Part shown: piece by piece, positions 1-61,400 of the stretch | Position numbering within the stretch: the stretch's first letter is position 1 | Layout of the letters: every line of letters starts with the position of its first letter | DNA from: Cenococcum geophilum | Lineage: Eukaryota | Direction of reading: 5' to 3' | DNA length: 64,000 nucleotides | NCBI GenBank assembly: GCA_050273025.1 | Contig: CP158635.1 | Location: 21,142,001 to 21,206,000, forward strand | Notes under the pieces: generated by a model | Database searches by the model: none | Told to the model about the DNA's origin: nothing | The model's input: the letters and a program-made list of their open reading frames with translations, nothing else | Program-made: the position numbers and the translations under genes

Positions 1-3000
1 CTACCCTATTATCCTTAAAATAAACTAGCTTAAATAATATAACCCTACTATTAACTAGAAGAAGAAAGAAGTAACCTTTAACTCTAAATACTGTAGAGAG
101 ACTTACCTAGGGCATAGCCTAGCCGCCTCTATTTACTTCTTAGAATATTAACCTATGGAACCCCTTATTATTCTACCTATAACTAACTACCACTATATAA
201 GTGCCCTAGCCTTCTACTGTATAGTATATAGGAAAGATTAAACCGTTGCCGTAGCTTCCTAATTACGACTATATAAGCTTAATAAAGAATAGGACTATAT
301 CCTCTATAGTAATAGAATAGATATAATTAACCTTTTAAAAGACGACGCCCCTATAAAACTCTATAGACTTTTACCTTTAGACTTTAAGAAGTTTATAAAG
401 CTTAAAAAAGGACTTACCAACGAAGAACTCCGCAAGCTCCTCCTTAAGAGGTACTATAACTTTACTAATATATGCTTATAAAAGGGCGCAGATATACTCC
501 CCCAATATTAACCTAATAACTATACCATTAATATTAAATAAGGAAAAATACTACCTTATAAGAGACCCTACCTAATATTAAAAGATAAACTTCTAGTTAT
601 AAAAAAGTATATTAACGAGCACCTTAATAAAGGATTTATTCGTCCTAGCATATTACTAGCAGCCGCCCCTATCCTTCTCGCTAAGAAACTAGGAGAAGGT
701 ATTTAATTCTACGTTAACTATAGAGGACTTAACGCTATTATAATTAAAAACTAATACCTAGTACCGCTTATACATAAGACCCTTAAGCGGCTTAGTTAAG
801 CTAAAATCTATACTAAGCTTAATATTATTGCCGCCTTTAACTATCTCTAAATACGGAAAGGTAACGAATAAAAAACTATATTCGCATTGCGCTTTAGCCA
901 ATTAAAATATACTATTATGCCCTTTAGCGTATATAACGGCCCAGGCACCTTCTAAAGCTATATTAATAACGCCTTATAAGACTACCTTAACGACTTCTGC
1001 TATGCGTACCTAAATAATATACTTATTTATAGTAATAACTCTTTTAAGCATACTAAATACGTTTAAAAGGTCCTATAGCGCCTTAGGGATATAGGACTTT
1101 ATATTAATTTAAAGAAAAACAAATTTTTAGTTATAGAAGTAAAATACCTTAAACTAATTATTACTACTAAGGGTATCTATATACACCCCAAAAAAGTACG
1201 TATAATTACTAAATAGCAAGCCCCTAACTGTATTAAGGATATATAAGCCTTTCTTAATTTTGCTAACTTCTATTAGAAATTTATATATAACTTCTTAGGC
1301 GTAGTAGTACTACTTATAGTAATAATGCAAACGAAGGGCCTTTCTATAAAAGGAAGAAAAATACACCTACGCTTTACCTAGACGCCTAAATATAAGAAGA
1401 CGTTCTAAGACCTTAAAAACGCCTTTACTAAAGCACCTATCCTAGCTTACTTTACACTAGGATAACAACTCTATCTTAAAACCAACTCCTTAGACCACGT
1501 TAACGCAGACATCCCTTTCTAGATAGGCGATAACGGTCTCCTTTACCTAGTTATATTCTATTCGTCAAAACTTATACTATAAGAGTATAACTATAAAATC
1601 TATAATAAAGAACTCCTTATAATTATATAAGCGTTTAAAGAATTTTAACTAGAACTCTCCTTAGTAGAACCTAACTAGCTAACTAAAGTCCTTACGGACT
1701 ATCGCAACCTTAAGTACTTTATAACTATAAAGTAGCTAAACTAACGCTAGGCACGTAAGAACAAGTTCCTCTTTAGTTTTAACTTTAAAATTATATATAG
1801 ACTAGGAGTATAAGGTACTAAACCTAATAGCCTAATACGCCGCTTATAAGACCTTCCTTAGTCTAAAGATAACCCCTATAATTAGTTCCAACAATAGACA
1901 ATCCTAAAAGCATAAAATTTGGCCCTAGGCATACCACCTACAATAGAGCCAACTATACCTTAGCTTTATACCACAGAACTAGAGTTACCTCCTAAAATTA
2001 ATAAGCTTATTACTACGGCATATAATACTTCTATTAACCCATTACTATATTAACTTATCGCCGTAAAGACCGCTAGCGCCTATACGCTACCTACTAACCT
2101 TTAAAGCTTAGGCTAGATTATTATAGCAGCCTTAGAAGTAAAAGAGAATAGGCTCTATTATAGAGGCCGCCTATTTATCCCTAACTTAGAAAATCTATAA
2201 CGGCAACTAATCTAAATGGCCCACGACCTCTAATTAAGTGGCTACCTAGGCAAAGGAGGAACCTACAAGCTCCTTAGCCGATATTACTTCTAGCTAAAAA
2301 TAATAGACTTAGTTAAACGCTTTATAGGCGCCTACTACGGTTATAAGCGCGCTAAGGCCTTTAATATAAAGTACTAAGGACTATTATACCCTCTACTAGT
2401 ACCTATACGACGATAGGCAGATATCGCTATAGATTTCGTTATTAACCTACCACCCTATAAACGACACGGCCGTAACTATAAGAATATCCTTATAATAATA
2501 TACCGACTTATAAAAGAGCGCTACTACGTCCTAACTAAAGGCGTAGCCATTAGCGATGTTACTAACGCCTTCTTTTATAAAGTTTACTAACTATATAGGT
2601 TACCTAACTTAATTACATCTAACTAAGGCATATAATTTAACTCTAATATATAGAGACAAATCTGCTAACGCCTTAGTATCTCTGTTAAGATATCTATATC
2701 CTTTTATTATAAAACTGCTAGGTAACCGGAAAACGCTAATATCAGCATAAAAGTGTACCTACAATAGGTAGTCGCCTATAGTTAAAATAACTAGGTAGAT
2801 TACCTCCTACTAGGTAAATTTATAGCGAATAATTACGTCTTAACTACTACAGGACTTACCCCGTTCTTCGCGAATAAGGGTTATTACCCCTAATCCGGTA
2901 TAGAGCCACCAGAACCTATTAATAAGAAACTACTATATAGAAAACGCCTTAAGATGCTACTTGCCGACTAGCATACAGACTATATAAAAAATCTACTCGA

Positions 3001-3603
3001 CTATTATAAGGGGGAAATGGCCTGGGCTTAAGTAAAGTAGGCCTACTTCGCTAACTATTATAGAACGCCACTACCGGAGATACGTGTTAGCGACTGGGTA
3101 TAGCTAGATATACGTAATATCTCTATATAGAGGCCTATAAAGTTACTTAATTATAAGAACCTTAGCTCCTATTTAATTAAATAAGTTATTAATAGGGGAG
3201 CCGTATATAAGCTAGAACTCCCGCTTACCCTAGCTACCCGCGGGATATAGCCTATATTTTACATATAGCTACTACACCTCTATTAGCCTAACCCCTTACT
3301 AGGGCAGATATAGCTTAAACCCCTACTAGTACTAATTTAAGATAAGAATAAAGATAATAACTATAAGGAGTAGACTATTAAACAAATTATTAACTCTAAA
3401 TACTTTAGCAAAGGTAGAGGACGACGGCTTTACTACAGAGCTATATACATAGGATTCGATATAAATTAGCCAGAATGGCAACTATAGGAAGACTTTAAAA
3501 ATGCAAAGGATTTAATTAGCGACTTTTACTACGCAAACCTATAGAAACTGGGCCTAAGCAGAGATTTTATACTTAATCCTCTATAGGAGCCCTTATAGAG
3601 TTA
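1..3603 (+). pseudogene. pol: Gypsy pol relic (RT, RNase H, integrase, chromodomain)
   Basis: Degenerate motifs: AAPILL-KK-GEG-FYVNYRGLN (~661-735), MPF (~917), YL(D)(D)ILIYS (~1007-1033), RNase H ETDSSD-like (~1480), integrase H..GHPG (~2221-2250), chromodomain-like end (~3370-3540); many RIP stops. Confidence 0.9.
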
Positions 3604-3891
3604 AACCGCTATACATTGCCATGTAAGGGCAAATTGCCGTTAAATTGCCATTAGATTGCGGTAAAGTGCGATTATATAACTGGAATATCGTTAAGATATC
3701 TAGGAACTTTAACCGGCGGTTAAAGTTATCTAATTAGTTGGATTTTTAGATGCCAAGCCTTATTATATAATATTATTTTAAGCCTTTAACAATACCCCCC
3801 TTTCTTCTTTTCTATACCTTAAGTGTTCCTTTTATATATATATAGTAACCATAGCGTCGCCGGAGCTCTACCTTTATAGGAAGGGGGGTAG

Positions 3892-4084
3892 TGTTACGGA
3901 ACCCCACCGTAGGGGCCTCTATAGGAGAACCCCGTGCTCTTGCGTACACCTTATATATAGCTTATATCAGCTACGCGTAGGTATATCACTTCCTTACGCC
4001 CTCGACCCTTACGATTGATCGCGTAACGTCTTATAGACTCCTTAAATACATACGCTCTATGGCCACTGCCCCCGTCCTATAATA
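3892..4084 (+). repeat. 3' LTR of Gypsy element
   Basis: TGTTACGG...ATAATA (RIP of ..ACA); homologous in reverse complement to the LTR at 62364-62568. Confidence 0.85.
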
Positions 4085-5375
4085 TAGTAAAACGTTTCTC
4101 TATTACTACCTTTACCACTACTACCGCTTACGCGGTAAGGTTGTTCTTTATATAGCTTCTTTTAGTATTACGGCCCTCCTACTACTTAGTAACCGTACTA
4201 CCTACTCCTGTTTTTAGATACCTATTAATCTATATAAAGAGTCTACTTGTAATATCTCTAAAAGATTAAATCTAGCCAAGCTTCTACGCCGTACCTCTTT
4301 ACTTATTTAGGATAAGGTGCTAATACAGCACCGCTACTACTTTAAAGCTGTATACTATATACTTATAGACATCTATTCTAATAACTCTACCTTTAGTGGG
4401 CTCCCTACTATTTTAGGCGGTAACTTTACTTAGATACTACCTGTCGTCCTATAGGGAAACCGCGTAGCTATTATAGGTGCTTACCTATAGCGGTTATTCC
4501 TCTAGTCTACCTTCTATATTCTTTCCTTACGGTTAAATATACGTATCTACTAGGGCGAGATAAACTAGCAGTTTGCCGCTTAGGTGCGAAGCTTATCCTA
4601 TAATATATCCCTAGCTAATAGGGTTAGTATTCTACCTATTATAGCCTAGTTCCGGTCCTAGGAATCCTTTTACGGGTATATATACCCTCTATATCTACTT
4701 ACGCGGGTATACTATAACCTAAATGCCTTTCGCGATCGCGCTATCCTAACTATTTATAATAATTCTGTAGCTAAGATTAATAAGGCTATCCTTACGCGGC
4801 TCTGCGGCTTCCTAAGCACCTTTTATTTTACGGACTCTATAGAGTAAAATAGAGAAGAAAATTATATAGAACTGCCGCCGGTGGAGCTCCTATAGACATT
4901 TAACCCTAATAACCTACCTCTGTTAAAGCTTTCCCTAAAGGTAAGGGCGCCTATAATTCTTTTACGGAACCTCTACCCTAAGGAAGGGCTCTATAACGGC
5001 ACCCATATGGTTATTACACGCCTAGGCTAGCGCTATATTAAAGCTTAGATGCTTCGCGGCAGCTTTTACAGGTAGCTGCGGCTAATCCCTTATATTAAGC
5101 TTACCTCTATAGAGGGAGAACTACCGTTTATTATTAGTAGAAGGTAGTTTCTAATCCGGCTGTGCTTTACTATAACCGTAAATAAATCGCAAGGGCAGTC
5201 TTTTAACTTTATTAGGCTTAATTTGCGTATACCAGTCTTTACGTATAGGTGGCTATATATTACACTATTAAGAGTAACAGATATATATAGGCTTTTACTA
5301 TTACTATCATAGGATAGGGATAGCACAACCGTTAATATTATATATCTAAAGGTTTTACTAGCCGTTACGGGCTAA
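4085..5375 (+). pseudogene. Helitron PIF1-like helicase, C-terminal part (Helitron copy 1)
   Basis: Starts inside Walker A (GKTFLY); WDE-like, LGGDF-Q-LP, LKVGAP-ILLRNL-P-EGL-NGT, RRQFP-RL-F--TVNKSQGQS and NI-YPEVL motifs; colinear with 36556-37830. Confidence 0.93.
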
Positions 5376-5439
5376 GACGTGGGGGGATAGTATGGCAGCA
5401 GTAGTGGTAGTAGGGTAGTAGTAGGGTAGTAGTATGGTA

Positions 5440-5645
5440 GACTAAGTTTAGAAGGCCAAAAGCCCGCTATAGGCGCGAGAATTCCGTTAAATTTCTTTAA
5501 GGAACCAAATTACTAGCTATAACCTAGTAATTTAGAAATTTTCCTTAGAAAATTTAATGGAATTCTCGTCTAATATATATTGAATTTGGGTTAAACCTAA
5601 GAGTTATATTAGTTAAAAATTGGTCTGGATTACCTAATAAGGGAC
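5440..5645 (+). repeat. Helitron junction module with ~93-nt hairpin (5476-5568) followed by CTAA|T
   Basis: CGAGAATTCCGTTAAATT pairs with AATTTAATGGAATTCTCG; inner stem AAATTACTAG/CTAGTAATTT; module recurs at ~42435-42635 and ~54640-54835. Confidence 0.85.
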
Positions 5646-5929
5646 GTGCTTCCTTATGTGCTATCCTATTAAATTTACCTTTTTTCTACCCCCTACAACT
5701 CTCCATCTTCCCCTCTATTCATTATACTTTATCTACCTACTACCTAAATACCTTCTAATTGTATACTTTACTCTACCTATACATGCTATTACTTTTTTAC
5801 TAAGTTTATAATAAAACGCCTTAGAGCTCTATATAAGACCTATAACCCTTATAAAGTTAATACTCTTGTTTTACTCTTTTTCCTATTATTACCTCTCTAA
5901 CTCTATATAGGAGAAAAAAAGGGGATAAG

Positions 5930-7208
5930 TATAGTCCTAATAACCTTTAGCGGACCTTCCGTAGCCTATAAACTAAACTACAGCCGCTACTACTTCCGTT
6001 ACTACCACCGCTCCCCTTATACCACCCGTATTAATTTAGCCGCGACCTACTATAGTCCGTCCTATTGCGGGCTAGTTAAATATTAGGCCTATTACTACGG
6101 TCCGCCCTATTACAAAGTAGCTAGATTATAGTCCTATTACTATAGTCCGCTATATTATAGAGCAGCTAGATATTAGTCTTATAATTATTACCTATAACTT
6201 CTACGCTACCCTATATTAGATTAATAAATATATTAATATATTACCGCCCAGCAATCCTTAATTTAAAGTCTGCTGTAAGTATAATAATATAAACCTCCCT
6301 CTATTCTAGCCTCCATTAAAATATCTACGCGATCTTTTAAAGTCCTATAGTACTTTTACTAGGCAGTTTAGGGAGCGGCTCCGCGCATATAATATAGCAT
6401 TGGCTTTTACGTCCGTAAACTATACCGTTACTAACTATAGTATAGCCCATAGCGGCCTAAATTGCTTTTAGATATATAGTGAGCTTTATTATCTATAGGG
6501 CCCGCTAAAGCCTCCTACTAATACTACTCCGCGGTATGCCTAGCTATACTTTTACAACCCTAGTTATGCTATAGATGTCTAGCTATAGGCCTGTCCTAAT
6601 ACTTAGCTAGATATAACTATTCTATAGTGCCTTACTACTATACTATCTAAGGAATAGAACCCTTTTATCGCCCTCTATTAAACCGTAAGGGAACGGCTTT
6701 AGGTTTAGCCTATAACAGCCCTATTACGGATTATCTTAAACCTATAAATACGGCTTATCTTAAAGGCTAGTGCTAATTAGCGCTGTAAGAACCTCTTAAT
6801 AAGTAATAAGGCGGCCGTTATTATACTAGATAAGTATAGTAATACTAGCTTCCGCAATATTATACTTATGGAGCGTTATATGCCTAATAAGCAGCTGCGG
6901 TACTACCGTATTAACTTAACGCATACCGTATATATGCCGCTCCACTACGTACTACTATTCTATCGCGGCGATACTAGCTAGCACTAGGGTCTTTAGCTAT
7001 GTAACTCTAATTAAGCCTATTAGCGAGACCATTTAACCTAGCGGGTATACTTTTAGTTCTACCTACACATCTATAGCAACTCTAGGTTAGTCCCTTTTAC
7101 CTATTACTAGCTATTTTAGTAGTATATTATTAATGCATAGGCGCTATATAATTAGAATAAGCTTACCTAGATCCGCTCTAACTAAATAACCCTCTATGTG
7201 GAGCTGTA
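5930..7208 (+). pseudogene. Helitron Rep/helicase, N-terminal part
   Basis: IR-YNIAL-FTSV, FQI-GEL----GPL--P, YAQLYF-DP, Y-PLHYVLLF-RG--GW motifs; colinear with 55125-56448. Confidence 0.88.
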
Positions 7209-28028: not shown

Positions 28029-28217
28029 ACGGCCGAATATTGGAGTATTACACGTGTAAATAGTGCTTTGTTATTCAAATCGGAGTTCAAGTTGGCGATA
28101 GTGGCCTGTGCGGGCTTACTAATTGCTGAGTAATCACGGTTGTGTGGGATGATAGTGCCCGGGGACTCTCCGCCGATTTTCACTTGCAACAACGTGCCTA
28201 AAAAAAAATTCCTGATG

Positions 28218-29001
28218 TAGAGGTTCTGCACGAGGCTCTACACAAAGCTCTGCACGAAGCTCTGCACGAAGCTCTACACGAAGCTCTGCACGAAGCTCTA
28301 CACGAAGCTCTATACAAAGCTCTGCGCGAAGCTCTACACGAAGCTCTACACGAAGCTTTGCACGAGGCTCCACACGAGGCTCTACACGAAGCTCTGCGTA
28401 CAGAGGCTCTGCACGAGGCTCTGCACGAGGCTCTACACGAAGCTCTACACGAAGCTCTACACGAAGCTCTACACGAAGCTCTACACGAAGCTCTGCACGA
28501 AGCTCTGCACGAAGCTCTACACGAAGCTCTACACGAAGCTTTGCACGAAGCTCTACACGATGCTCTACACGAAGCTTTGCACGAGGCTCTACACGAAGCT
28601 CTGTACGAAGCTCTGCACGAAGCTCTACATAAAGCTCTGCACGAAGCTCTGCACGAAGCTCTACACGAAGCTCTACACGAAGCTTTGCACGAGGCTCTAC
28701 ACGAGGCTCTACACAAAGCTCTGCATATAGAGGCTCTGCACGAGGCTCTGCACGAAGCTCTACACGAAGCTCTACACAAGGCTCTGCACGAAGCTCTACA
28801 CGAAGCTCTGCACAAAGCTCTATATAAAGCTCTACACGAAGCTCTGCACAAAGCTCTACGAAGCTCTACACGAAGCTCTACATATGGAGGCTCTGCACGA
28901 GGCTCTGCGCGAAGCTCTACACGAAGCTCTGCGCGAAGCTCTACACGAGGCTCTGCGCGAAGCTCTGCGTACGGAGGCTCTACACGAAGCTCTACATAAA
29001 G
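28218..29001 (+). repeat. 12-mer tandem array (ACGAAGCTCTRC)n, cassette copy A
   Basis: Direct reading; occasional 15-nt variant GTACGGAGGCTCTGC. Confidence 0.97.
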
Positions 29002-29169
29002 CCTTTGTGTGTGTGCGCGCGACACATTACTATTGGGTCCCCGCTATATTCCCGATAGCCTCTACACGTGCCTCTGCTAAGTATACCCCCTATATACACC
29101 TAGGTAGCCACCTCATTTTTTACCCTTCCTTACATCCTATCTAGGAAGACACCAGAACGACAGCCAGCA

Positions 29170-29600
29170 GACGACCGTCGCCGGAGCCAGACGACCATCG
29201 CCGGAGCCAGATGACCGTCGCTAGAGCTAGACGACCGTCAGAGCCAGACGACCGTCGTCAGAGCTGGACGACCGTCGCCGGAGCCAGATGACCGTCGCCA
29301 GAGCTAGACGACCGTCAGAGCCAGACGACCGTTGTTAGAGCTGGACGACCGTCGCCGGAGCCAGATGACCGTCGCCAGAGCTAGACGACCGTCAGAGCCA
29401 GACGACCGTCGTCAGAGCTAGACGACCGTCGCCGGAGCCAGATGACCGTCGCCAGAGCTAGACGACCGTTAGAGCCAGACGACCGTCGTCAGAGCTGGAC
29501 GACCGTCGCCGGAGCCAGATGACCGTCGCCAGAGCTAGACGACCGTTAGAGCCAGACGACCGTCGTCATCGCCACACGACCGTCGCCAGAGCCACACGAC
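29170..29600 (+). repeat. 20-mer tandem array (GACGACCGTCGCCAGAGCCA)n with 77-bp higher-order repeat
   Basis: CCGGAGCCAGATG recurs at 29201, 29278, 29355, 29432, 29509. Confidence 0.95.
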
Positions 29601-29664
29601 AACCGTTTAAACGACCAGCCAGCGAACACGATAAACGATTTGATCGATCGATCGAATTAAGGTG

Positions 29665-30065
29665 ACATAGACAGGTAGGCATAGATAGGTAGGCACAGAC
29701 AGGTAGGCATAGACGGGTAGGCATAGATAGATAGATAGACAGATAGATAGATAGGTAGGTAGGTAGGCAGGCAGGTAGGTAGGTAGGTAGGCAGGCAGGC
29801 AGGTAGGTAGGCAGGTAGGCAGGTAGGCAGGTAGGCAGTTAGATAGCTTTATATTTTATATAGTTATAATATAAATATATTTAAAAGTATATTATAGCAA
29901 TCTATGGAAATATGTGATAATTTAGTTATTATATAATATAATAAAATTTTATATAGTTATAATTTGTACAGTTTATACAGTTTGTATAGTTCGTATAGTT
30001 CGTATAGTTCGTACAGTTCGTATAGTTCGTATAGTTCGTATAGTTTGTACAGCTTGTACAGTTTG
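29665..30065 (+). repeat. 14-mer/AGAT/AGGT/AGGC microsatellite, AT-rich spacer and 9-mer (AGTTCGTAT) array
   Basis: Direct reading. Confidence 0.9.
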
Positions 30066-30406
30066 CGCGCTATTTATTTATAGGGTAGCAAAAAGCTAGC
30101 ATTAGTTTAGTGGTTGAGCGTTTTACTGTAATTTACTAGCAGAAGCTGCAAATTTGTTACGAAACGCGCTGTTTACGCGAATCGCTAACGACCATATACG
30201 ACCACGCAAATCGCATAGTTTGCAGCAAATTGCCGCAATCTGCAACAACGCGCCTAAAAAAAAATTTCCTGATGCCTATAAGAAATAAGAAGTCCTAACG
30301 CCTATCCCTATCCTTTTATAATTTATTTCTATCCTTTTACTTTCTAATATCTCTTTACTAAGAGCCTAGTAGGAGTTACCTCCTTCTATAGATCCTGTTA
30401 TTATTA

Positions 30407-32833: not shown

Positions 32834-34674
32834 TAGCTACTTTCTAGTGGCTATCCCTATTCTACTTAGGAATAGAAAAAGTGCCTTTCTTCCCTTTTAT
32901 ATACAAAATAACTTTTCTAAAAAGAGAGAAGAGCCTAGTTTCTTTTATATTTCTCTTCTTTCTTCTCTATATAGGTTATAGTCTAGTAGTAGATGTCTAG
33001 GGGTTTATAGTGCTCTATATTCCCTAAAGCATCTACCATCTTCATTCTCCCCCCTATTACTTTAGAGAAGGATTTAAAATAGCCTTTTCCTAGCTTTAGC
33101 TGGAAGAAAGCTAATTGTAGCCTTTTAGGATATTTATCCTTAGGGGCTTTAAGAGAAAAGGAATGACTTCCTTTACAGATCCTAGTATAGTGTTTTCCTT
33201 TATTCTTATTCTGTTGCTAGTTATTTTCCCACTATTCTAGTATCTTTTCTCTTGCTGCTCTCCCTATATAGGCTAGGGAGGTATAAGAAGATTATAGTTT
33301 TCTTCTAGAAAGGCCCTTTTTAGCTAGCTTATCTGCTATTTCGTTCCTATAGATTCCTAAATGGCTAGGAACCCAGTAGAAGTTAATAGAGATCCCTTTA
33401 CCAGCTAGATAGAAACAGCTTTATATAATTTTAAAGACTAGTTCTTGCCCCCCTATAAGAGAATTAAGCTATAATCTTTTAATAGCCGCTTGGCTATCTA
33501 TAAAGATATAGACTTATTTCTCTTCTAATCTTTATTATTTTAGGTGTTTTACGGCCCTATAGACTGTATAGATCTCTATGTCTATAATTTCCATATAGGG
33601 TCCTAGATTCCAGTTTATTGCATATTTAATCCTATTTCTCTCCCCTATTTTATATATGGCAGCTACGTTTAATTTATTGTCTTTAGAGCTATCTGTATAG
33701 TATATATCTACTAGGTCCCACTCTAGGGATTTTTATAAATTTTCTACTAGTCTTAGATGTTCTTATGCAGCTTCTTCCTTACTACCTTTTAAGATAGAAA
33801 AGGATGCATAAATAGGAGGAGACTACGGTTTTTGCTATTCTAAAGAGATTCTCTCTATTTTCCAATTTTAAATTAGCTGCTAAACTCTAGAGGCTAGAGA
33901 TAGTAGCTGTGTCTTTGGCTGTAAGAGGTACTTTATAGTAGAGTTTTTAGGGCTAGAACTAGAGCTAGAACTAGCTGCTAACTTATCCCTATCTTTATTG
34001 ATCTCTTCTATATTAACCTTCTTAATTACGTAGTTTTCCTTAAATTTTAGGATTCTTAATGCGTAGTTATTGTAAAGCTTTTTAAATCTAATTCTAGGAG
34101 GAGGAATAGAGGCTTTAATCTCTATAGCTTAGCTAGGAGATCCTCTAAAAGCTCCTAAAACTAGTCTTAGGGCCTTATTTTATAGAGATTGGTACCTATT
34201 TAGTAGGTGGTCTCTAGATTTGCTTTTCCACCAGCATTATACTTTGTAGTCTGCTATAGTAGTAACGCAAGCTATATAGAGCTGTCGTAGGGCTTATAGA
34301 GATAGACCTCTTTGTATATTACCTAGCCTTCTAATTAAATAGAAAGCTGCCTTTACTTTAGGGATTTGTATTTCTATATGTTGTTTAAAAGTAAGCTTAG
34401 AGTCTAGGAATACCCCTAACTACCTAACTAGGGGTTTAGGGGATATTTCTACGTCTCCTAGCTTTAACCCTTCTTCCATAGTGGTACGTTTACTATAGAA
34501 GTATATAAGCTCTATTTTGCTAACGTTAAAACTAATAGCAGCTTCTTTAGCTTTAGATATTAGCTCTAGCGCTATTCTCTCTAGCTTTTTGCAATTAGAT
34601 TTAGCAGAATTTAAAGTAACCATAATTGCAAAATCGTCTATGTAGCTAAGAGAATAGGCTGCAACATACTCTTA

Positions 34675-37600
34675 CAATAGCGTTATAAATACTCTTACCT
34701 ACTATAATCTAGACCCTAAATTATTAGGCCACTGCGTAGTTTTTCTATCTTGTTTCCTTAGCGGAGATCGCTTTATTAGGCAGTGCTATTAGGATTTAAT
34801 AGCTATTATCTATAAATACGGCCGTCTAAGTATATTTCTTACGTTTACTGCTAACCCTAAATAGGACGAGATTACCTATAAGCTACTGCCTGGCTAGACC
34901 GCTATAGATAGGCCCAATCTAGTTATGCGCGTCTTCTATATAAAACTTATCCACCTCTTTTACAACCTAAAACGGAAGTAGATCTTTAGCTAGTACTACG
35001 GCTCTATTTAAACTATTAAGTACTAAAAACGGGGCCTGTCCTATCTATACCTACTACTCTTTCTATATTTATATAACCGCAATAGGCTACTAAACCTAGC
35101 CGTTATTGACTATTTTATATCCGCTAAGCTTCTATAATTAGAGGACAATCCTACTAGCTGTCTTACTAAGATTATAAAGTTAATAATAGTTTATAGCCCT
35201 TACGGCTCCTAGAATCCGTAGGCTCCCTATATAGTTACGCTAGGGCTAGGCCTTCTACTAACCTACTTAAAGCGGTACCCTAAGCCTTTTAACCCTACTA
35301 CTGTTATATATAAGGACGGCTATCCAGAATACCGCCATTGTAATAATTTGCGGTTATAGTCTATCCGCTTACTAGGGGGGGCTATATTTAAAATAAACAA
35401 CCACTAGATTATTCCGTACTGCCTATATTTAACTATAAAGCATTATACGTATATAAGTGTTAAGGTCTGCGCCTCCGTAAAGTCCGTTAAGTATATCTAT
35501 AAGTATATATATAAGGGGAGCGATCGCACTACTTTACGGCTTATAGATGGTAATAAGGTAAGCTAGTATTTATAGGGCTATTATATCGGCCCCTCCGAGG
35601 CTATCTAGCAGCTATTTAAGTTTCCCGTTTATAAGGAGTTCCCCCCTATAATTTAGCTTACGGTACACCTTTTAGGCAAGTAGCCCGTATACTTTTAGCT
35701 AGATTAGTCCGTAGAGGAGATCTAGTAGCGCTTTTAGCTCTCCTACTCTACCTTAACGGCCTTCTTTAGGTATAATATAGAGTATAAGAATAACCGTAAC
35801 TAGCTATATTAAGACTTTCCTAAACGGCACGTCTTTTATATAAAGCGCTGGGAGTAGCGTCCTTACTAGTAAAGTACCGTAATAGGCTATATATATTACT
35901 ACAGCCCTATTATAAGTAAGAGGTTCTACTTACGGCTACTATTAATATCCATTTTTAGCCCTACCTCCTTTAAAGACCTCTATACTATTGCTAGTATAGC
36001 CTATCTAACCTTCTAGGCCGCCTACGTTACCCTAGGGCTACTAGAGGATAATTATAAGTGGATTAATTACTTAACAAAGGCCGCCGTTTTTGCTATTAGC
36101 GCCTAGCTATACTCCTTATTCGTAACCGCTTTAATTTACGGCCCTATTATAGAGCTAGTTGCTTTATAGGACCGCTTTAAATAGTCTATTTATAATAATC
36201 TACCTTACTTTCTAGCCCGCTAACCTAATGCTCCTCCTATAGTTACTAAGGATAATAACACCTATTTTAATTACGGCCTATACCTTATTTATTAGATACT
36301 TACAAATTACTAAAAGATGCTTATAGACTATAGCCTGCCCTAGTTCTAGCACTAGTAGGGTATTATTGCTAAGGGAAGTAACCCGCTTCTTATAGCGGAG
36401 CTACTATAATATAACCCTATAGAGGAAGAATGCTAATATATTAAGCTACGCTAGCAGCTAAATGTAAATTAGGCAGCGTGCTTTAATACTATTATTACCG
36501 CTATAGATGCGGATCTATAAACCGCTCGCTTCTTTCTCTAGGGCCCTATAAGCACTAGTAAAACGTTTCTCTATTATTACCTCTACCACTACTACTGCTT
36601 ACGCGGTAAGATTGTTCTTTATATAGCTTCTTCTAGTATTATAGCCCTTTTACTACCTGGTAGCCGTACCGCCCACTCCTATTTTTAGATACCTATTAAT
36701 CTATATAAAGAGTTTACTTATAATATCTCTAAAAGCTTAAATCTAGCCAAGCTTCTACGCTGTACCTCTCTACTTATTTAGGATAAGGTGCTAATATAGC
36801 ACCGCTACTACTTTAAAGCTGTACACTATATACTTATAAACGTCCGTTTTAATAACTCTACCTTTAGCGGACTCCCTACTATCTTAGGCGGCAACTTTGC
36901 TTAAATACTACCTATCGTCCTATAGGGGAACTGCGCAGCCATTATAGGTGCCTACCTATAGCGGTTATTCCTCTGGCCTACCTTCTATATACTATCCCTA
37001 TGGTTAAATATACATATCCGCTAGGGCGAGATAAATTAGTAGTTTGTAGCTTAGGTATAAGGCTTATCTTATAATATAGCCCTGGCTAGTAGTATTAGTA
37101 TCCTACCTAGTATAGCCCTATTCTAGTCCTAGGAACCCTTTTACAGCTATATATATTCTCCGTAACTACTTACTTAGGCATATACTACTCTTAATATCTT
37201 CCGCGATCGCGCTATCCTAACTATTTATAATAATACTATGGCTAAGATTAATAAGGCTATCCTTACGCGGCTCTGCGGCTCCCTAAGCACCTTTTATTCT
37301 ATAGACTCTATAGAGTAAAATAGAGAAGAAAATTATATAGAACTGCCGCTAGTAGAGCTCTTACAAATATTTAACCCTAGTAGCCTACCTCCGTTAAAGC
37401 TTTCCCTAAAGGTAGGCGCGCCCGTAATCCTTTTACGGAACCTTTACCCTAAGGAAGGGCTCTATAATGGCACCCGTATAGTTATTACGCGTCTAGGCCG
37501 CCGCTGTATTAAAGCTTAGATACTTAGCGGCAACTTTTACGGCTAGCTACGGCTAATCCTTTATATTAAGCTTACCTCTACAGAGGGAGAACTGCTGTTT

Positions 37601-37833
37601 ATTATTAGTAGAAGGCAGTTTCTAATCTGGCTATGCTTTATTATAACCATAAATAAGTTATAGGGGTAGTCTTTTAACTTTGTTGGCGTTAACTTACGTA
37701 TACTAGTTTTTACCTATAGGCAGCTCTATATTACCCTATCTCGGGTTACTACCGTAAATAGTATTTTAGTACTGCTTTCCCTAAATTAAATAAAGATAGA
37801 TAATATTATCTATTTAGAAGTCTTACTTTTGTA
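34675..37833 (+). pseudogene. Helitron Rep (HUH) and PIF1 helicase, remainder of copy 2
   Basis: FLTFTANP-W-EI (~34836), (E)Y(Q)KRGL-(H)L(H) (~35018), KY--KYIYKGSD (~35490), Walker A GP--T(G)KTFL (~36542), helicase motifs through NIIY-EVL. Confidence 0.93.
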
Positions 37834-37974
37834 ATAAGGTATATTATTTTATTATATAACTACTTTTATAACTGCCCTATAGGGCTAGCAAAACTTTTAT
37901 AAATGCCCTATAGGGCCCAGTAAACCCCCCCTCTACCCCCCCTCTACCCCCACTCCCCTACTCCTTATCCTTAT

Positions 37975-38927
37975 CCTCCGATAACTCCTCCTTAAGTATA
38001 GCCGCTAAATGGCGGAGCAGCCCTGTAACCCGCCCGCGCCGCCTAAGACGGGGGCGGACGCGGGCAGGTAGGGCCTTCTCTTCCTCCTCCTTATCATCGT
38101 CATCGTCGTTATTATCGTCGTTGGCGGTGGCAGTAGCGGGAGGTGCGGGAGTATAGAAGCAGGAGCGGGAGCGGGCTGCGGCGGGGGAGGTAGCAGACGC
38201 TATTATCTCTATTAGTTATGCTTTTATAGCTTATATTACTAACTTATAGGCCCGGAAGGAGCAGCGCGCCCCTTTGTTGCTATAATAGTAGTTAGTATAG
38301 CTGCTACGTAGCTAGCCCGCGACTAGTACATACTCCGTAAATAGGCCGCCGCCCTATATATACGACGTATAAGCCTATAGGGCTACCATACCCTAGCTTT
38401 AGGCTAGGGCGGCCTTTGCATTTAGGGCCCTAGCCTTAAGGTAGACCCCCTAGTAGACCCTAGAAGCTCTACCTAAGCTAAAAGCCTACTATAGAGATAC
38501 ACCCTAAACGCGTGGTAGGGGATATAGCGCCCGCATTACAGCCGTGTTAGCGGTAGCGGCTTCGGCGGCAGTGGTAAGCGCGGTAGGCGAGGGATTTTAG
38601 GGTAGAAGGGCGGTGGGCTAATTTACGGCTATAAAGCTGGCTGGGGGGGGAGCAGCGGCAGCGGGGGTAGTAGGGGTAGCGAGAGCGGTGGTAGTAGCGG
38701 AAGTAGTGGTAGCGGCAGCAGTAGGAGCGGGGAGGGGTCTGGTAGCAGCAGCAGCTATAGCAGCTATTTACATATTAGTATCTTCTTAAATTCTTAAATT
38801 CTTAAATTCTTTTATAGTACTAATACTTACTAGTACACTTATCTGCTGGGACTAAAGTCTCGCGCGCAGGCACCCTAGCCTAAGACGGCGGCGGCAAGGA
38901 CAAGAAGTAGCGGCCGGGCGCGGACAT
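37975..38927 (-). pseudogene. DUF3716-like Cys-rich protein relic with one intron, lying within Helitron copy 2
   Basis: ATG at 38927; intron GTAAGT...CTAAT...TAG (~38830-38765); NA(E)AALA...GG(P)FTE(C)VLVAG-LR(G)S(CA)N(CH)Y-N-GARCSFR (~38425-38250). Confidence 0.7.
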
Positions 38928-40051
38928 GGCGGCGGCAGCGGCGGTGGTGGTAACGGTAGTAGTGGTAGTGGTAGTGGTGGCAGCGGTGGTAGTAGCAGCA
39001 GGAGTAGGAGCAGAAGACGCAGCAGCAGCAGCAACGGCAGTGGTGATGGTAGTAGTGATAGTGCTATTGCTTAAGGAAGAAGAAGAAGATAACGACAACG
39101 ACGTAAATAGCTATTGTTAATCTACGTCACGTGATTAATTATATAAATCTATATCACGCGATTATCACATAAAGGCAGCCTTACGTCACTACTACGGTAG
39201 TAGGGCGGTAGCGAGGTAATAGTGGGATAGTAGTGGGGCAGTAGCAGGGCAGTAGTAGGGTAGTAGTAGGGCAGTAATATGTAGTAAATGGCAGTAATAG
39301 GCAGTAAAGGGAAGTTAAAGCTTTAATACTGTATTATATTTATTATATCTTATTCTTATTTCTACTTTATATAGATATATATAAAAATATTAATAGCGTT
39401 TATAATAGTGTTTATAATAAGTTAATTAATAGTCCTAATAGTAGGGTCTTTTATATATATAAGTATCTTATATAACATTTTTATAAAATAGATTTAATTC
39501 TAAATATATAATATATTCTATAATATAAAGTACTTTATATAATAGTAAAAGTAGTACTATATAAAATTAAAATAAAAGTAAAAATAAAAGTTATAGCTAT
39601 AGCTAAAGTAGTAAAGTTAGTAAATTAAAAAGGAATTAATATAGTATATAAAAAAGAATAAAAATAGTAATAGTACTATAAATAGAAATAAAGGTAAGAA
39701 TAAAGATAATAATAGAAATAAAAATAGTTATAATATAGTATTAAAATTAATAAACTAATATAATAATTAATATAAAAGATAAATAGATAATAATAATAGT
39801 AATAATAAGGTAGAAATAGTAGTAATAATAATAAATTAGGAACTAAAGTAATAGTAAAAAATAGTATATAAGTAGTAATAAATATAGCTATAAATTAGGA
39901 AATAAAGATATATTAGAAGTAATAAAAAGGAAGTTATTTTAGTAGTTAAAAGGGAAGTAGTAAAGGTAGTAAGGGTAGTAATAAAAATAGTAGAATAGTA
40001 GAATAGTATTACGGTAGTAGTAAGTAGTAGCAGGGTAGTAGTAGGGCAGTA

Positions 40052-42364: not shown

Positions 42365-42434
42365 TAGTAGGCAGTAGAGGGCAGTAATAGGCAGTAATAG
42401 GCAGTAGAGGGCAGTAGTAGGGCAGTAGTAGGGC

Positions 42435-42635
42435 AGACTGAGTTTAGAAGGACAAAAGCCCGCCGTAGGCGCGAGAAATAAGTAAATTTCTCCAAGGACC
42501 AAAATTGCTGGCTATAAGTTGGCAATTTTGAAATTTTCCTTAGAGAATTTGCTTATTTCTCGTCTAATATATACTGAATTTGGGTTAAACCTAAGAGTTA
42601 TATTAGTTAAAAATTGGTCCGGATTACCTAATAAG
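42435..42635 (+). repeat. Helitron junction hairpin module, copy 2 (stem 42472-42562)
   Basis: CGAGAAATAAGTAAATT / AATTTGCTTATTTCTCG followed by TCTAAT. Confidence 0.85.
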
Positions 42636-54639: not shown

Positions 54640-54835
54640 TTTAAAAGGATAAAAGCCCGCCGTAGGCGCGAGAAATAGACTAAATTTCTCCAAGGACCCG
54701 AATTGCCGGCTATAAGTCGGTAAGGAGGAAATTTTCCTTAGAAAATTTGGCCTATTTCTTGTCTAATATATGCTAAATTTAGGTTAAACCTAAGAGTTAT
54801 ATTGGTTAAAAATTAGTCCGGATCACCTAATAAGG
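54640..54835 (+). repeat. Helitron junction hairpin module, copy 3 (stem 54669-54761)
   Basis: CGAGAAATAGACTAAATT / AATTTGGCCTATTTCTTG followed by TCTAAT. Confidence 0.85.
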
Positions 54836-57800
54836 GATATACTCCCTTACGTGCTACTCTATTAAATTTACCTTTTTTCTACCCCCTATTGCTCTCTATC
54901 TTCCCCTCTATTTATTATACTTTACCTACCTACTACCTAAATACCTTTTAATTATATACTTTACTCTACCTATAAGTACTATTACTCTTCTACTAAGTTT
55001 ATAATAAACTGTCTTAAAGCTTTATATAAGACCTATAACCCTTATAAGGTTAATACTCTTTTTTTACTCTTTTTCCTATTACTACCTTTCTAACTCTATA
55101 TATAGGAGAAAAGAAGGGGATAAGTATGGTTTTAATAACCTTTAGTAGACCTTCTATAGCCTATAAACCAAACTATAGCCACTACTACTTCCACCACCAG
55201 TACTACTCCCCTTATACCGCCCGTATTAATTTAGCCACAACTTATTATAGTCCGTGCTATTACGGGCTAGTTAAATATTAGGCCTATTACTATAATCCGC
55301 CCTATTATAGGGTAGCTAGATTATAGGCCTATTACTATAATCCGCCCTATTATAGGGTAGCTAGATTATAGTCCTATTACTACGGTCCACTATATTATAG
55401 AGCAGCTAGATATTAGTCCTATAATTATTACCTATAACTTTTACGCCGCCCTATATTAGATTAATAAACGTATTAGTATATTACCGCCTAGTAATCCTTA
55501 ATTTAAAGCCTACTATAAGTATAGTAATATAAACCTCCCTCTATTTTAGCCTCTACTAGAATATCTACGCGATTTTTTTAGAGTCCTATAGTACTTCTAC
55601 TAAGTAGTTTAAAGAGCGGCTCCGCGTATATAATGTAGCATTAGCTTTACGTCCGTAAACTATACTATTACTAACTATAGTATAGCCCATAGCGGCCCAA
55701 ATTGCTTTTAGATATATAGTAAGCTTCACTATCTATAGGGCCCGCTAGAGCCTCCTACTAATACTGCTCTATAGTATACCTAGCTATACTTTTACAACCC
55801 TAGTTATACTATAAATATTTAGCTATAGGCCTATTTTAATACCTAGCTAGATATAACTATTCTACCGTACCTTACTGCTATATTATTTAAGGAATAAAAC
55901 CTTTTTATTACCCTTTATTAAACTATAAGGGAACGGCTTTAGGCTTAGCCCGTAACAGCCCTATTACAGATTATCTTAAACCTATAAATTCGGCTTATCT
56001 TAGAGGCTAGTACTAATTAGCACTATAAGAACCTCCTAATAAGCAATAAGGTGGCCGTTATTATACTAAATAAGTACGGTAATACTAGCTTCCGTAATAT
56101 TGTGCTTATAGAGCGTTATACGCCTAATAAGTAGCCGCGGTACTGCCGTATTAACTTAACGCATACTATATATATGCCGCTCTACTATATACTACTATTC
56201 CCTCGCGGTAATACTAGCTAGCATTAGGGTTTTTAGCTATATAACTCTAATTAAGCTTACTAGTAAGACTGTTTAACCTAATAGGTATACTTTTAGTTCT
56301 ACCTATACATCTATAGCGACTCTAGGTTAATCCCTTTTACCTACTACTAACTATTTTAGTAGTATATCGTTAATATATAGGCGCTATATAATTAGAATAA
56401 GCTTACTTAAATCCGCTTTAACTAAATAACCCTTTATATAAAGCTATATAATAGCGTTATAAATACTTTTACCTGCTATAATCTAGACCCTAAATTATTA
56501 GACTACCGTATAGTCCTTCTATCTAGTTTCCTTAGCGGAAATCGCTTTATTAGCTAGTACTATTAGAATTTAATAGCTATTATCTGTAAATATAGCCGTC
56601 TAAGTATATTTCTTATATTTACTACTAACTTTAAATAGGATAAGATTACCTATAAGCTACTACCTAGCTAAACCGCTATAGATAGGCCCAATCTAGTTAT
56701 ACGCGTCTTCTATATAAAACTTATTTACCTCTTTTACGACCTAAAACGGAAGTAGATCTTTAGCTAGTACCGCGGCTCTATCTAAACCATTAAGTACTAA
56801 AAACGAGGCCTGCCCTATTTATACCTACTACTCTTCTTATATCCGTATAACCGCGATAGGCTATTAAACCTAGCTATTATTAACTATTTTATATCCATTA
56901 AGCTTCTATAACCAGAGGGCAATCCTACCAGTCATTTTACTAAGATTATAAAGTTAATAATAGTTTACGGCCCTTACGGCTCCTAGAATCTATAGGCTCT
57001 CTATATAGTTACGTTAGGGCTAAGCCTTCTACTAACCTACTTAAAGCAGTACCCTAAGCCTTTTAACCCTACTACTATTATATATAAGGACGGCTATCTA
57101 GAATACTGCCGTTGTAATAATTTACGGTTATAATCTGTCCGCTTACTAAGGGGGGCTATATTTAAAATAGATAACTACTAAATTATTCCGTACTGCCTAT
57201 ATCTAACTATAAAGTATTATATATATATAAACGTTAAGGTTTACGCCTCTGTTCCCCCCTATAATTTAGCTTATAGTAAACCTTTTAGGTAAGTAGCCCG
57301 TATACTTTTAGCCGGACTAGTCTATAGTAAAGATCTAGTAGCGCCTTTAGCTCTTTTACTCTACCTTAACAGCCTTCTTTAGGTATAACGCGAAGTATAA
57401 GGATAACCGTAACTAGCTATATTAAGACTTCCTTAAGCGGTATATCTTTTATATAAAGTGCTAGGAGTAGTGTCTTCGCTAGCAAGGCACTATAATAGGC
57501 TGTATATATTACTGCAGCCCTATTATAGGTAAGAGGTTCTACTTATAGCTACTACTAACGTCTATTCCTAGCCCTACCTCCTTTAAAAACCTATATACTA
57601 TTACTAGTATAGCCTATCTAACCTTCTAGGCCGCCTACGTTACCCTAGGGCTATTAAAGAATAATTATAAGTAGATTAATTACTTAACAGAGGCCGCTAT
57701 TTTTGCTATTAGCGCCTAGCTACGCTCCTTATTTATAACCGCTTTAATTTATAGCCCTATTATAGAGCTAGTTGCTTTATAGAACTGCTTTAAATAGTTT

Positions 57801-58415
57801 ATTTATAATAATCTGCCTTGCTTTCTAGCCTGCCAACTTAATACTCCTCCTATAGTTACTGAGGATAATAACACTTACTTTAATTACGGCCTATACCTTA
57901 TTTATTAAATACTTATAGATTACTAGAAGACGTTTATAAACTATAGCCTGCCCCAGTTCTAGCACTAGTAGGGTATTATTACTAAGGGAAGTAACCTGCT
58001 TCTTATAGTAGAGCTATTATAATATAACCCTATAGAGGAAAAATGCTAGTTTATTAACCTATACTAGTAGCTAAATATAGATTAGGCAGCGTAATTTAAT
58101 ACTATTATTACCGCTATAGATGCGGATTTGTAAACTACCTACTTCTTTCTCTAGGGCCTTACAGGCACTAGTAAAACGTTTCTCTATTACTACCTCTACT
58201 ACTACTACTACTACTCGCGTAGTAAGATTATTCTTTATGTAGCTTCTTCTAGTATTACAGCCCTTCTACTACTCCTATTTTTAGATACCTATTAATCTAT
58301 ATAAAGAGTCTACTTATAATATCTCTAAAAGCTTAAATCTAGCTAAGCTTCTACGCCGTACCTCTCTACTTATTTAGGATAAGGTGCTAATATAGTACTA
58401 CTACTACTTTAAAGC
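54767..58415 (+). mobile_element. Helitron copy with Rep/helicase relic (~55125-58415), cut by a Gypsy LTR
   Basis: Colinear with 5574-7208 + 34675-36820; EYQKRGLPH-like motif ~56790; Walker A ~58155. Confidence 0.9.
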
Positions 58416-61400
58416 TGTTACGGAGTAAGTATAAGTAGCGATAATATATAGCAAGGTAGATATTATTAAGCTATATATATAAACTGTGTAAGGAGGTTAA
58501 GACGTTGTATAAGGAAAGAAGGTAGGAAAATGGGAAGAAAGGGTATATATTGTGGACTTAGTTACTTAGTTAATACATACACAGAGCAAAATAGGATTTA
58601 GGTAGTGGTCCTAGCAGAACTTAGTAGGATTTAGTAAAACTTAGTAGAACTTAGTAGAACTTAGTAGAATATAGCAGAATGCGGTAGGTTGCCGTCAGAT
58701 TGCTATAGATTGCTATTAGATTGCTGTCTTATGGTTAGTCTCTAGTTGCTAAGTTGGTAGAAATAGATAGATATGTATAAGGTGTTACGGGGGTGTCCTA
58801 TAACAGTACCCCCCCTTTAAACTCGAGCTTCTATAAGATAGGGCTGTAGTAGTTCTGGGTGGAGTTTATAAAAGTCTTCTGTAGCTTATATAAGTCCTAT
58901 AGAGTTAAAAGGTTCCTATAAGGGCTTAGTAAAGCCTCTCCATTTCGTAAGATATATATATTAGCGTTTCCGTTTATTATACTTAATATTATTAATTCTT
59001 TTAATAAAGTACTCGTTTTTACTATCTACTTTAACTAATAGGGGAGGGTTTTATATCTGTCTAGGTAGGGCGTCTAATACGGGAGTAGTAGGGCGGAGGA
59101 CTAACGTGTAGAATACGGGGTGGATTTTAACCGTATTAGGGAGCTTTACTTAGTAGGTATAGGATAAAATAACCTTCTTAACCTTATAAGGGCCAGCGTT
59201 CTTCTAATTAAGCTTCTTAATAGGTTGTTTTATGTTTAGATTTCTTATATTTAGCCAGACGAAGTTATTAATTTAGTAGGCCGGTGCTAGGGTTCGTTTC
59301 TTATTCGCTGCGGCCTTATAGACAGATTAAGCCTATATTATTTTATTAGTAAGGAACTATTATAGTTCCTCTATCTTCTTTATAAATTTATTTACTTCTA
59401 TAATTTATAAGGCGTAATAAGTAGGGCGAGGAATATTACTAAAGGGTTTAAAACCTATTTATAGATACTAGCTGTAGTTGGCTAGGAATGGAGAGACCTT
59501 TATAGTTTCTAAGACGGAATTATTTATAATAAACTTAGTAAATGCAAGCTAGTTAATCTAGTTATTTTATAAGTATGACGTGTATATCCAAATATACTAT
59601 TCTATTATAGTATTTATATATTCTATTTAGCCATCTATTTCTAGGTAATATATTATAGACAATAGTACTTTAATACGGAGTTAGGTAGTTAGTTCTTTTT
59701 AAAATTTAGAGATAAACTAGCTACCTCTATTAGAGATAATCGTTTTAGGGAGTTTATAGAGTTTCTATACGTAATCTAAGAACAGCTAGACAATGGTAGG
59801 TGTTAATATATTAGGGCAGGCGATTAAGTATCTTATCTTAGATAGTTAGTCTATAACTACTATAATATTCGTGCAGCTCTTACTTACGGAGAGGTCAATA
59901 ATAAAGTTAATTAAGATGTCCTTTTATCTTCGGTTCGGAATAGGCAGTGGCTTTAAAAGGCCGTTGTATATCTTATGCAAAGCTTTAGCTTATTGGCAGA
60001 TATAGTAGCTAGAGATGTACCTTTATGTTATATTATATATATTCGGCTAATAGTATTCTTATTAAAGCAGTTCTAGGGTTTTTCCTTAGCCTAGGTGGCC
60101 GGCTACTAGTAAATTTGTAACCGACTACCGGACCTTATATATTACCCTGTTTTACCTACGTTAGCACTACCCTCATATGTTTCGGATACGTTTAATATAA
60201 GTTATAGGCTCCGGAGTTAGGGGTCTACTTTTATGTATTTATACCACTTGATTTCCATAAATTTACAATTAAGTTGCTTATTTAATTCCCACACACTGCA
60301 AAGCTTACAGTTATGAGCCCGGCCTGCCTACTGTACTACATCTAATCTGTACATTTAGCGCTTACTAAGCAATTAATCTACTACCTCGTTTAAGAAGTCA
60401 CTACTTCTTCTACCTTTATAAGTGTTTTAAGCTTCTTTCGGGTACCTCTCTTATACTTATAATTACCTTTATTTACTAAACGGACGGACGATCGAATATT
60501 GATCGTATTAAACATTGATTGAACCGAACTGAACCTGACCGTATAAACCCGACCGTATAAACCCAACCTCCTTTAACCCAGATACACAACCATTTAATAG
60601 AGTCGACCTATTTACTATAGCGTAACGACCTTATATGGCGTCTAAGTAAGAGCCTAGCTAGCGCAATAGCCCGAGTACAGAGCTAGAGCGAGATGCTAGA
60701 GCACAGAGCTAGAGCGAGATGCCAGAGCACAGAGCTAGAGCGAGATGCCAGAGCACGGAGCTAGAGCAGAAGCTAGCTTAGATATACTAATAGTGAGAGA
60801 CAAGGATATTAGGTAGACATAAGGAAGGTATTAAACCGACAGCAGCCAGTAGTGAACTATCGCCAAAACTAGACAACTATTTAAACGACCAGCTAGCGAA
60901 TATTAGATTAAACCAAACTAGAGCCTTAATATAGGCCTGTCGCCAAATCAAATCAAGGCCTCCTGGGGAGGCACCAACGCTACAATTAGTCGCAGCTATT
61001 ACGCTATAGACGCCTTCCGCTACAACTAGTCGCAGCCGTCACGCTGTAGACGCCCTACCAAAAACCAGTCTACCACAGACAACCAGTCGCAGCCATCACG
61101 CTGTAGACGCCCTTCCGAAACGCCAGCCTACATTGGCACCAGCCTTATTGGCACCAGTTGCGACGACCGCAACGTCACCAAATACGACGTCTTAACGTCA
61201 CTAGAGTCACCAAGTGACTACTTCCAGATCTACCTCGATTACAGCTTATATGGCTACAGCTTAAATAACTACCTTAAACACAGATCTAAATATCTACCTC
61301 GACTATGGATTAAAAGGATCTACCGCGAGCACGGATTAATTAATTGCCTTAAATGCAGATTAAAATACCACACCTAGATCAAATGATTTAGTAGAGCCTC

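Follow-up and report, generated by a model that had tools for sequence, protein, structure and literature searches.

A Helitron1-like family in Cenococcum geophilum ends flush with a long terminal stem

Introduction

Three hairpins of about 90 nt, each at a junction between Helitron units, lie in a 64,000-nt stretch of the Cenococcum geophilum genome (the window; contig CP158635.1) and raise the question of where this transposon ends and what so long a stem does at its boundary. Canonical Helitron 3′ ends carry a hairpin of 16–20 nt, 10–15 nt before a terminal CTRR (PMC4778049, PMC5876387, PMC11417382, PMC13286980, PMC4289320, PMC2267711). Recognition of the 3′ end and choice of target are poorly known in Helitrons; the reconstituted element Helraiser has a short terminator hairpin and an AT target. 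Its hairpin is described as a terminator, and swapping the stem keeps about 90% of activity whereas changing the loop does not (PMC4778049). A sequence-only reading had taken the window hairpins for an unusually long, structure-selected terminator or origin at a Helitron junction.

Identity of the element

The window is fungal repeat DNA of the RIP type (TpA/ApT 1.77), and all copies of the family examined in the genome (178 Mb, seven contigs) are RIP-damaged. A little damaged reference unit of 5,119 bp (L161:878-5996) has a frame of 1,441 codons and 23 stops, which matches the Pfam profiles PF14214, PF05970 and PF21530. Residues 41–1412 of 1441 align to the RepHel protein of Helraiser (828 bits, E 9e-248, stops read as X), and the closest named relatives are ascomycete proteins (52–54%). 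One relative in this RepHel clade, P0001, is 84% identical and keeps an open frame of 1,223 aa. As the frame matches these profiles and aligns to Helraiser, the family reads as a RIP-killed Helitron1 of ~5.1 kb, predicted to function as Helitron1 does.

Several hallmarks of Helitron1 are present. RepHel combines a Rep domain (HUH/Y2) with a Pif1 helicase as in Helraiser, and solitary starts with dissimilar upstream flanks open with TCT, that is, with the 5′ TC. Inspection revealed none of the short inverted repeats that the 5′ end and the subterminal 3′ region of Helitron2/Helentron elements share: both stem arms lie within the last 93 nt of the element, and the 5′ end differs in sequence. A protein tree (61 rows, FastTree, midpoint root) served as a guide only, its branches being inflated by RIP and a Helitron2 outgroup being absent. 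A search of viral contigs for the family gave 0 matches. Elsewhere in the genome, a second Helitron group (L178, G000:C7:4775232-4775792) has a Helitron_like_N match without internal stop, covering profile positions 1–163 only.

Position of the 3′ end

Genome-wide, the mini-hairpin pattern has 113 exact matches and its reversed control none; the 100 matches listed and copies found by BLAST together gave 111 anchored copies. Ends were called from TTCTYR and complementarity to the left arm, with two calls corrected by hand; since the calls rest partly on that complementarity, their independent support is the divergence of the flanks, which part ways immediately 3′ of the last base of the stem. 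In 105 of the 111 anchored copies the element ends flush with the last base pair (...TTCTCG|T), and in six a callable end is absent; damage to the left arm made the caller miss L014. The last four bases are CTCG in 80 ends, CTTG in 12, CTTA in 10, CTCA in two and TTCG in one, 25 being RIP-type variants. The next base is T in 105/105, and 65 ends run into a non-Helitron flank and 40 into the TC start of another Helitron; together these features place the end at the last stem pair.

Thus the called ends have neither a terminal CTRR nor the canonical short hairpin; in their place stands a flush stem of 86–94 nt, with an 11-nt mini-hairpin 93 nt upstream. The CTAA|T that the sequence-only reading took as terminus had to be abandoned: CTAA is positions 2–5 of the TCTAAT start of the next Helitron, and the flanks diverge right after the stem. 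A CTGA ~12 nt beyond the stem was likewise rejected, as unique flanks diverge before it. That the hairpin is a Helitron boundary with an unusually long stem, not an internal structure, is borne out by the mapped divergence.

Empty sites, available for three of eight whole elements, show a gap of 0 without duplication for L172 and L179 and a 7-nt offset for L181. Whole elements that align to an empty site without offset thus lack a target site duplication, the exception being solo stems (see below). The base 3′ of the element is T in 65/65 non-tandem flanks, and the 5′ base is mostly A, often T and sometimes G or C; RIP blurs both.

Two irregular groups were noted. In L050, L057, L068, L134 and L144, the mini-hairpin is followed by only 8–12 nt of the left arm and then by other sequence; two of them have a complete end 1.4–1.6 kb further on. 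L184, L185 and L180 have composite 3′ regions, in which the mini-hairpin stops after the loop and is followed by the helicase end of another Helitron plus an extension; their 3′ ends were replaced repeatedly.

The window copies

All three window stems pair as first described and keep pairing while their sequences change (Table 1). The CGCC-GTA-GGCG mini-hairpin directly precedes each, intact in copies 2 and 3. Folded as DNA, the + strands of copies 1, 2 and 3 have z-scores of -6.6, -6.9 and -2.6, with 0, 0 and 4 of 200 shuffles folding as well; copy 3, which has the private inner-stem lesion, folds less well than the other two. After its 5′ part, unit 2 is broken up by ~27 kb of other repeats; its Helitron_like_N match begins at 34712, and the copy 2 stem probably closes this unit after another insertion.

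Other repeats share the window. Remnants of a Gypsy-like reverse transcriptase and integrase, recognised by eye in translation, occupy 1-3773 and 62809-63998, the latter copy being partial and inverted at the window end. Arrays of 12-, 20-, 17-, 9- and 4-nt units in two orientations, common to L170, lie at 28160-32530 and 40430-42070.

Table 1. Features of the Helitron units in the window and the two solo stems (window coordinates unless a locus is named)
Feature	Position	Strand	Remark
Unit 1, 3′ fragment (RIP-broken helicase C-terminus and 3′ end)	4087..5568	+	81% to 3603-5119 of the 5,119-bp reference L161:878-5996
Spacer motif from the canonical sister-family end, matched with RIP changes	5436..5449	+	possible relic of an older end
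GNA-loop mini-hairpin, copy 1	5465..5475	+	RIP-damaged
93-nt terminal stem, copy 1	5476..5568	+	last base 5568 is the 3′ end, CTCG
Unit 2, 5′ part with TC start	5569..7208	+	contains CTAA; 75% to reference 1-1719
Unit 2, continuation (Rep, helicase, 3′ extension)	34673..40051	+	82% to reference 1718-4797; 84% to long-form copy L173
GGGCAGACTGAGTTT	42431..42445	+	differs by one transition from the spacer motif in the canonical end of the sister family
GNA-loop mini-hairpin, copy 2	42461..42471	+	
91-nt terminal stem, copy 2	42472..42562	+	3′ end CTCG at 42562
Unit 3, TC start	42563..42633	+	no RepHel similarity downstream; resembles short units of other arrays
GNA-loop mini-hairpin, copy 3	54658..54668	+	
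93-nt terminal stem, copy 3	54669..54761	+	inner arm has a private lesion; 3′ end at 54761 is CTTG, a RIP-type change from CTCG
Unit 4, TC start and truncated RepHel	54762..58418	+	76-79% to reference 1-2523 and 2683-3867
Solo stem L249	L249:613-705 (G000 C6 ~10.67 Mb)		8-bp target duplication, checked against 7/7 empty homologues
Solo stem L250	L250:476-568 (G000 C6 ~13.38 Mb)		13-bp target duplication, checked against two close empty homologues

Pairing and covariation

The covariation set consists of 84 full-length stems (86–94 nt) in 77 distinct rows, in which 93.8% of cells are paired under the named structure. Pair 7 is A-T in 54 copies, T-A in 29 and T.T in one; pair 9 is C-G in 54 and A-T in 30; pair 10 is C-G or T.G in 54, A-T in 19, G-C in one and T.T in 10. 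Changes on both sides of a pair total 173, compared with 65 in shuffles (none of 500 as high) and 12–43 with slid partners, although relatedness alone inflates this count. For that reason a second count took purine/pyrimidine swaps only, leaving out transition-only swaps; RIP cannot make the former and is ruled out as their source.

Among these swaps, counted by hand, variants shared between copies are compensated in 6/8 cases and private ones in 1/12 (Fisher p=0.004). The six compensated shared classes, only about six events, comprise outer pairs 7, 9 and 10, one inner pair and two at the inner base that are partly register shifts. The two uncompensated shared classes are the T.T mismatch in 10 copies and a bulge in four; the outer 8 pairs have no shared uncompensated transversion. 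Since private transversions break pairing and shared ones keep it, the alignment indicates that pairing is maintained in replicating lineages and decays after insertion. Transversions beyond the reach of RIP, claimed from three copies, thus reappear as covariation in the larger set. The accompanying claim that the stem is structure-selected is likely, with homogenisation of the arms by template switching as the alternative.

C-GNA-G loops are unusually stable in DNA. Both hairpins carry GNA loops, and one G.T pair is fixed in 82/84 copies; these features fit the top strand and point to it as the strand that would fold.

Length variation in the stem

Sixteen of the 105 stems have internal deletions that leave 22–82 nt, and five have duplications (103–117 nt). 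Judging by deletions of at least 10 nt elsewhere in the element, a count that misses large ones breaking BLAST hits, 0.35–2.7 stem deletions would be expected. All deletion forms retain the outer arms and the same end, and duplications leave the end in place too. As even the 22–23-nt forms end at the same base, either most of the stem length, in particular the long inner part, is dispensable for end placement or the deletions arose after insertion. Deletions of this kind usually arise by slippage across a folded hairpin. Those of 63 nt occur beside full-length copies in at least two clusters of upstream sequence, in a clustering that gave mostly singletons. In L140 a 12-nt duplication is mirrored in both arms, and four other copies have a duplication in the left arm only; template switching, a process known from RNA stems (PMC8794818), probably contributes to these changes.

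Target motif and head-to-tail arrays

Target preference was assessed in 57 non-Helitron 3′ flanks, leaving out six that start with TCT and two repeated targets. AC occurs at +9 to +13 in 51 of these, against a mean of 12.2 and a maximum of 20 in control windows of the same flanks, and TAC in 40 (control mean 5.7). RIP may have turned CAC into TAC in the flanks; the positional excess is independent of that. Of the 37 starts of the element itself that were scored, 31 carry the motif at +11. This likeness between targets, T and then AC, and the 5′ end of the element may explain the head-to-tail arrays. Neighbours within an array come from mixed subfamilies, with up to 3% transversions between them; at C1:7.66 Mb, three consecutive units are 1–2 transversions apart, which may make them a concatemer. 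A head-to-tail arrangement with similar starts also occurs among distant relatives that end in CTAG.

In three sets of loci (L128, L130, L210; L109, L142; L013, L250, L253) one repeat spot was hit repeatedly by different subfamilies within 0–4 nt. The 5′ flank of L082 and the 3′ flank of L139 (G000:C5, ~3.951 and ~3.973 Mb) resemble the two halves of a single target site, one on each strand, which suggests that the segment between two oppositely oriented Helitrons was inverted. Sequencing data, comprising short contigs and an RNA run, gave little coverage of the stem and no circle joint among the joints listed; for the RNA run, the best 15 of 55 joints include none from end to start. A joint in 54 RNA reads skips L161:1163-1225; these reads are stranded over the 5′ region of the element and 85–95% alike, so they stem from another copy.

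Solo stems

A search with the right arm found two loci that hold only the 93-nt stem, from first to last paired base, without mini-hairpin or element. Both are almost free of RIP changes and flanked by target duplications (Table 1). Their right flanks carry the AC motif, and each stem is of a different attached subfamily type. Pattern searches added no further solo stems: the two were among four matches of one pattern, and two other patterns returned 0. Other 5′-truncated copies have target duplications of at least 7 nt at 0 of 32 boundaries. That the 5′ foot was broken independently at two loci suggests in vivo folding of the stem. The solo stems are taken as products of abortive integration, the alternative being repair of a hairpin-induced break.

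Related families

The sister family L247/L257 (G000:C7:12917700-12922660, minus strand) is 64% identical in nucleotides to the reference unit. In different flanks, L257 and the metagenome copy L183 both close with a 9-bp stem (loop C-GTA-G), followed after a spacer of 15 nt by CTAG|T; the pattern of the sister's end has one match in the genome. The loop and an AC at +9 or +11 in the flank are shared with the long-stem family, whereas the canonical 9-bp stem, the 15-nt spacer and CTAG|T are not. In many long-stem copies the sister's spacer motif turns up again directly 5′ of the mini-hairpin, where it is perhaps a relic of an older end. Among 66 metagenome loci, three have the end described here (L181 and L243 long, L210 short) and many have no identified end. 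The distant relatives L187, L193, L220 and L228 show CTCG|T after a short hairpin, as single copies whose ends were read from the motif. Long stems turned up solely in this genome and in close metagenome relatives; as the sister keeps a short hairpin of canonical form with CTAG, the long end seems to be derived, with a narrow distribution.

Discussion

The family is Helitron1-like but departs from the canonical form at its 3′ end. Of the functions that such an end could have, we consider it reasonably probable that the derived right end is a terminator in single-stranded DNA, the foot of which marks the cut, and that RepHel cuts and joins there by means of the T...AC motif. During rolling-circle transposition, the displaced top strand would fold into the 4-bp GNA-loop mini-hairpin, stacked directly on an interrupted stem of ~40 bp with a second GNA loop. 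The foot of the stem would set the mini-hairpin beside the scissile CTCG|T bond and leave only the downstream T-N(7-11)-AC single-stranded. RepHel would then cut and join at CTCG|T, recognising one T...AC motif both in new targets and at the 5′ end of its own element; resident 5′ ends would thus be good targets, and mixed head-to-tail arrays would follow. The position of the end, the pairing and its covariation, the tolerance of length, the target motif and the solo stems are observations; from them are inferred the folding on the transposing strand, the terminator role, what RepHel recognises and the upkeep of pairing by selection. It counts against a terminator that CTCG itself would be paired in a fully closed stem, whereas HUH nucleases cut DNA in single-stranded form. 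Of the two roles first proposed, terminator is nevertheless the best reading; nothing in these data favours an origin, and the origin-like TC start comes directly after the stem.

The strongest competitor, to which we give a distinctly smaller share of belief, treats the long stem as a by-product: a snap-back inverted copy of the last ~45 nt, its arms matched by template switching without selection, only the mini-hairpin and CTCG|T-N-AC being of consequence. Template switching can make and keep stems with multibase compensations (PMC8794818), and the mirrored duplication of L140 beside the four left-arm-only ones, the frequent loss of the inner stem and block-like changes at pairs 9–13 all agree with it. 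One-sided states have spread, however (T.T in 10 copies, C.C at pair 10 in the metagenome copy L243), and a stepwise route therefore exists. Moreover, an unstable palindrome stands at full length or longer in 89/105 copies and in both RepHel subclades, and the outer 8 pairs are free of shared uncompensated transversions.

It is improbable that the 93-nt module is the captured miniature inverted-repeat element of a cut-and-paste transposon, placed by chance at a Helitron end. The solo stems, with inverted ends and target duplications, are what such an element would leave, but a miniature element would have many stand-alone copies and duplications of fixed length, and here two solo copies stand against more than 100 attached ones and the duplications measure 8 and 13 bp. 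Both solo right flanks also bear the Helitron target motif, and the solo copies match different attached subfamily types. About as improbable, and ranked just below it, is a stem that serves as origin or RepHel loading site at joined circle ends: in a circle or tandem junction it would lie directly 5′ of the TC nick site, as in 40/105 copies, yet first array elements and solitary elements start at TC without a stem, and the Helraiser hairpin is described as dispensable for transposition from circles (PMC4778049). A role as RNA, in a 3′ untranslated region or as small-RNA precursor, is very improbable: top-strand G.T pairs suit RNA too and there are weak miRNA-type matches in Rfam, but the best reaches 27.6 bits against a 90-bit cut-off, a level that any long hairpin reaches and below the gathering score of a known family, the DNA boundaries of whole elements and solo copies coincide with the stem foot, and one RNA run has ~3-fold depth in the bin of the stem against 67-fold near the 5′ end.

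The terminator reading can be carried further, tentatively and with rather less confidence than the reading itself. This RepHel lineage might set its end by the junction of single- and double-stranded DNA at the stem foot, whatever is looped out (22–117 nt), and pick targets by a T...AC copied from its own 5′ end. The solo stems would then be fossil half-integrations, in which joining of the 3′ end was followed by fill-in of 8–13 melted target bases and by trimming of the remaining strand as far as the stem. If so, the order of Helitron strand transfers and the target footprint could be read straight from genome sequence. The family amounts to a natural mutation series, in which the sequence of the stem varies freely, the outer pairs and GNA loops persist, the length of the spacer does not matter and targets look like the 5′ end; short oligonucleotides would thus allow tests of how ends are recognised, how the family targets itself and in which order integration proceeds. 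Programs that look for a short hairpin with CTRR would miss this end, as the HelSearch settings (PMC4289320) and the right-end rule of HELIANO (PMC11417382) are described.

In the openly accessible literature covered, mostly at the level of listings, no flush long stem, CTCG end or 5′-end-like target motif came up, and the passages covered of bioRxiv 2025.11.13.688278 and PMC13535494 contain nothing on this end. As described for Helraiser and HLE1 (PMC4778049, PMC5876387, PMC11417382), the family has a RepHel that joins HUH and two-tyrosine motifs to a Pif1 helicase, a 5′ TC, a 3′ hairpin, T after the element, no duplication around whole elements and head-to-tail junctions. Unlike in these elements, the stem measures 86–94 nt instead of 16–20 nt, the end is CTCG instead of CTRR, a second, short hairpin lies upstream and the 5′ host base is not fixed (A commonest, T common). 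Helraiser further differs in an 11-nt spacer between stem and end, of which there is none here, and in a target defined by AT and AT-richness, strongest on the 3′ side, instead of a positional AC motif (same sources).

Among fungal elements, HELPO2 of Pleurotus also has a non-CTRR tetranucleotide, CTTG, but with an ordinary subterminal hairpin, no flush long stem being described in the text available (PMC4289320). FoHeli of Fusarium, a Helitron2, is alike in its non-canonical ends, self-insertion and multiple termini; it differs in asymmetric terminal inverted repeats between the two ends, where both arms here lie at the 3′ end, and in ending with ATTTT or CTCCTGT (PMC5148889). Precise junctions of a 3′ end with TC have been described between adjacent dissimilar Helitrons of maize and read as consecutive insertions (PMC2267711), and tandem arrays in plants and bats are cited in PMC5876387. 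In the present family such junctions make up 40/105 ends, and the resemblance of the target motif to the 5′ end could account for them.
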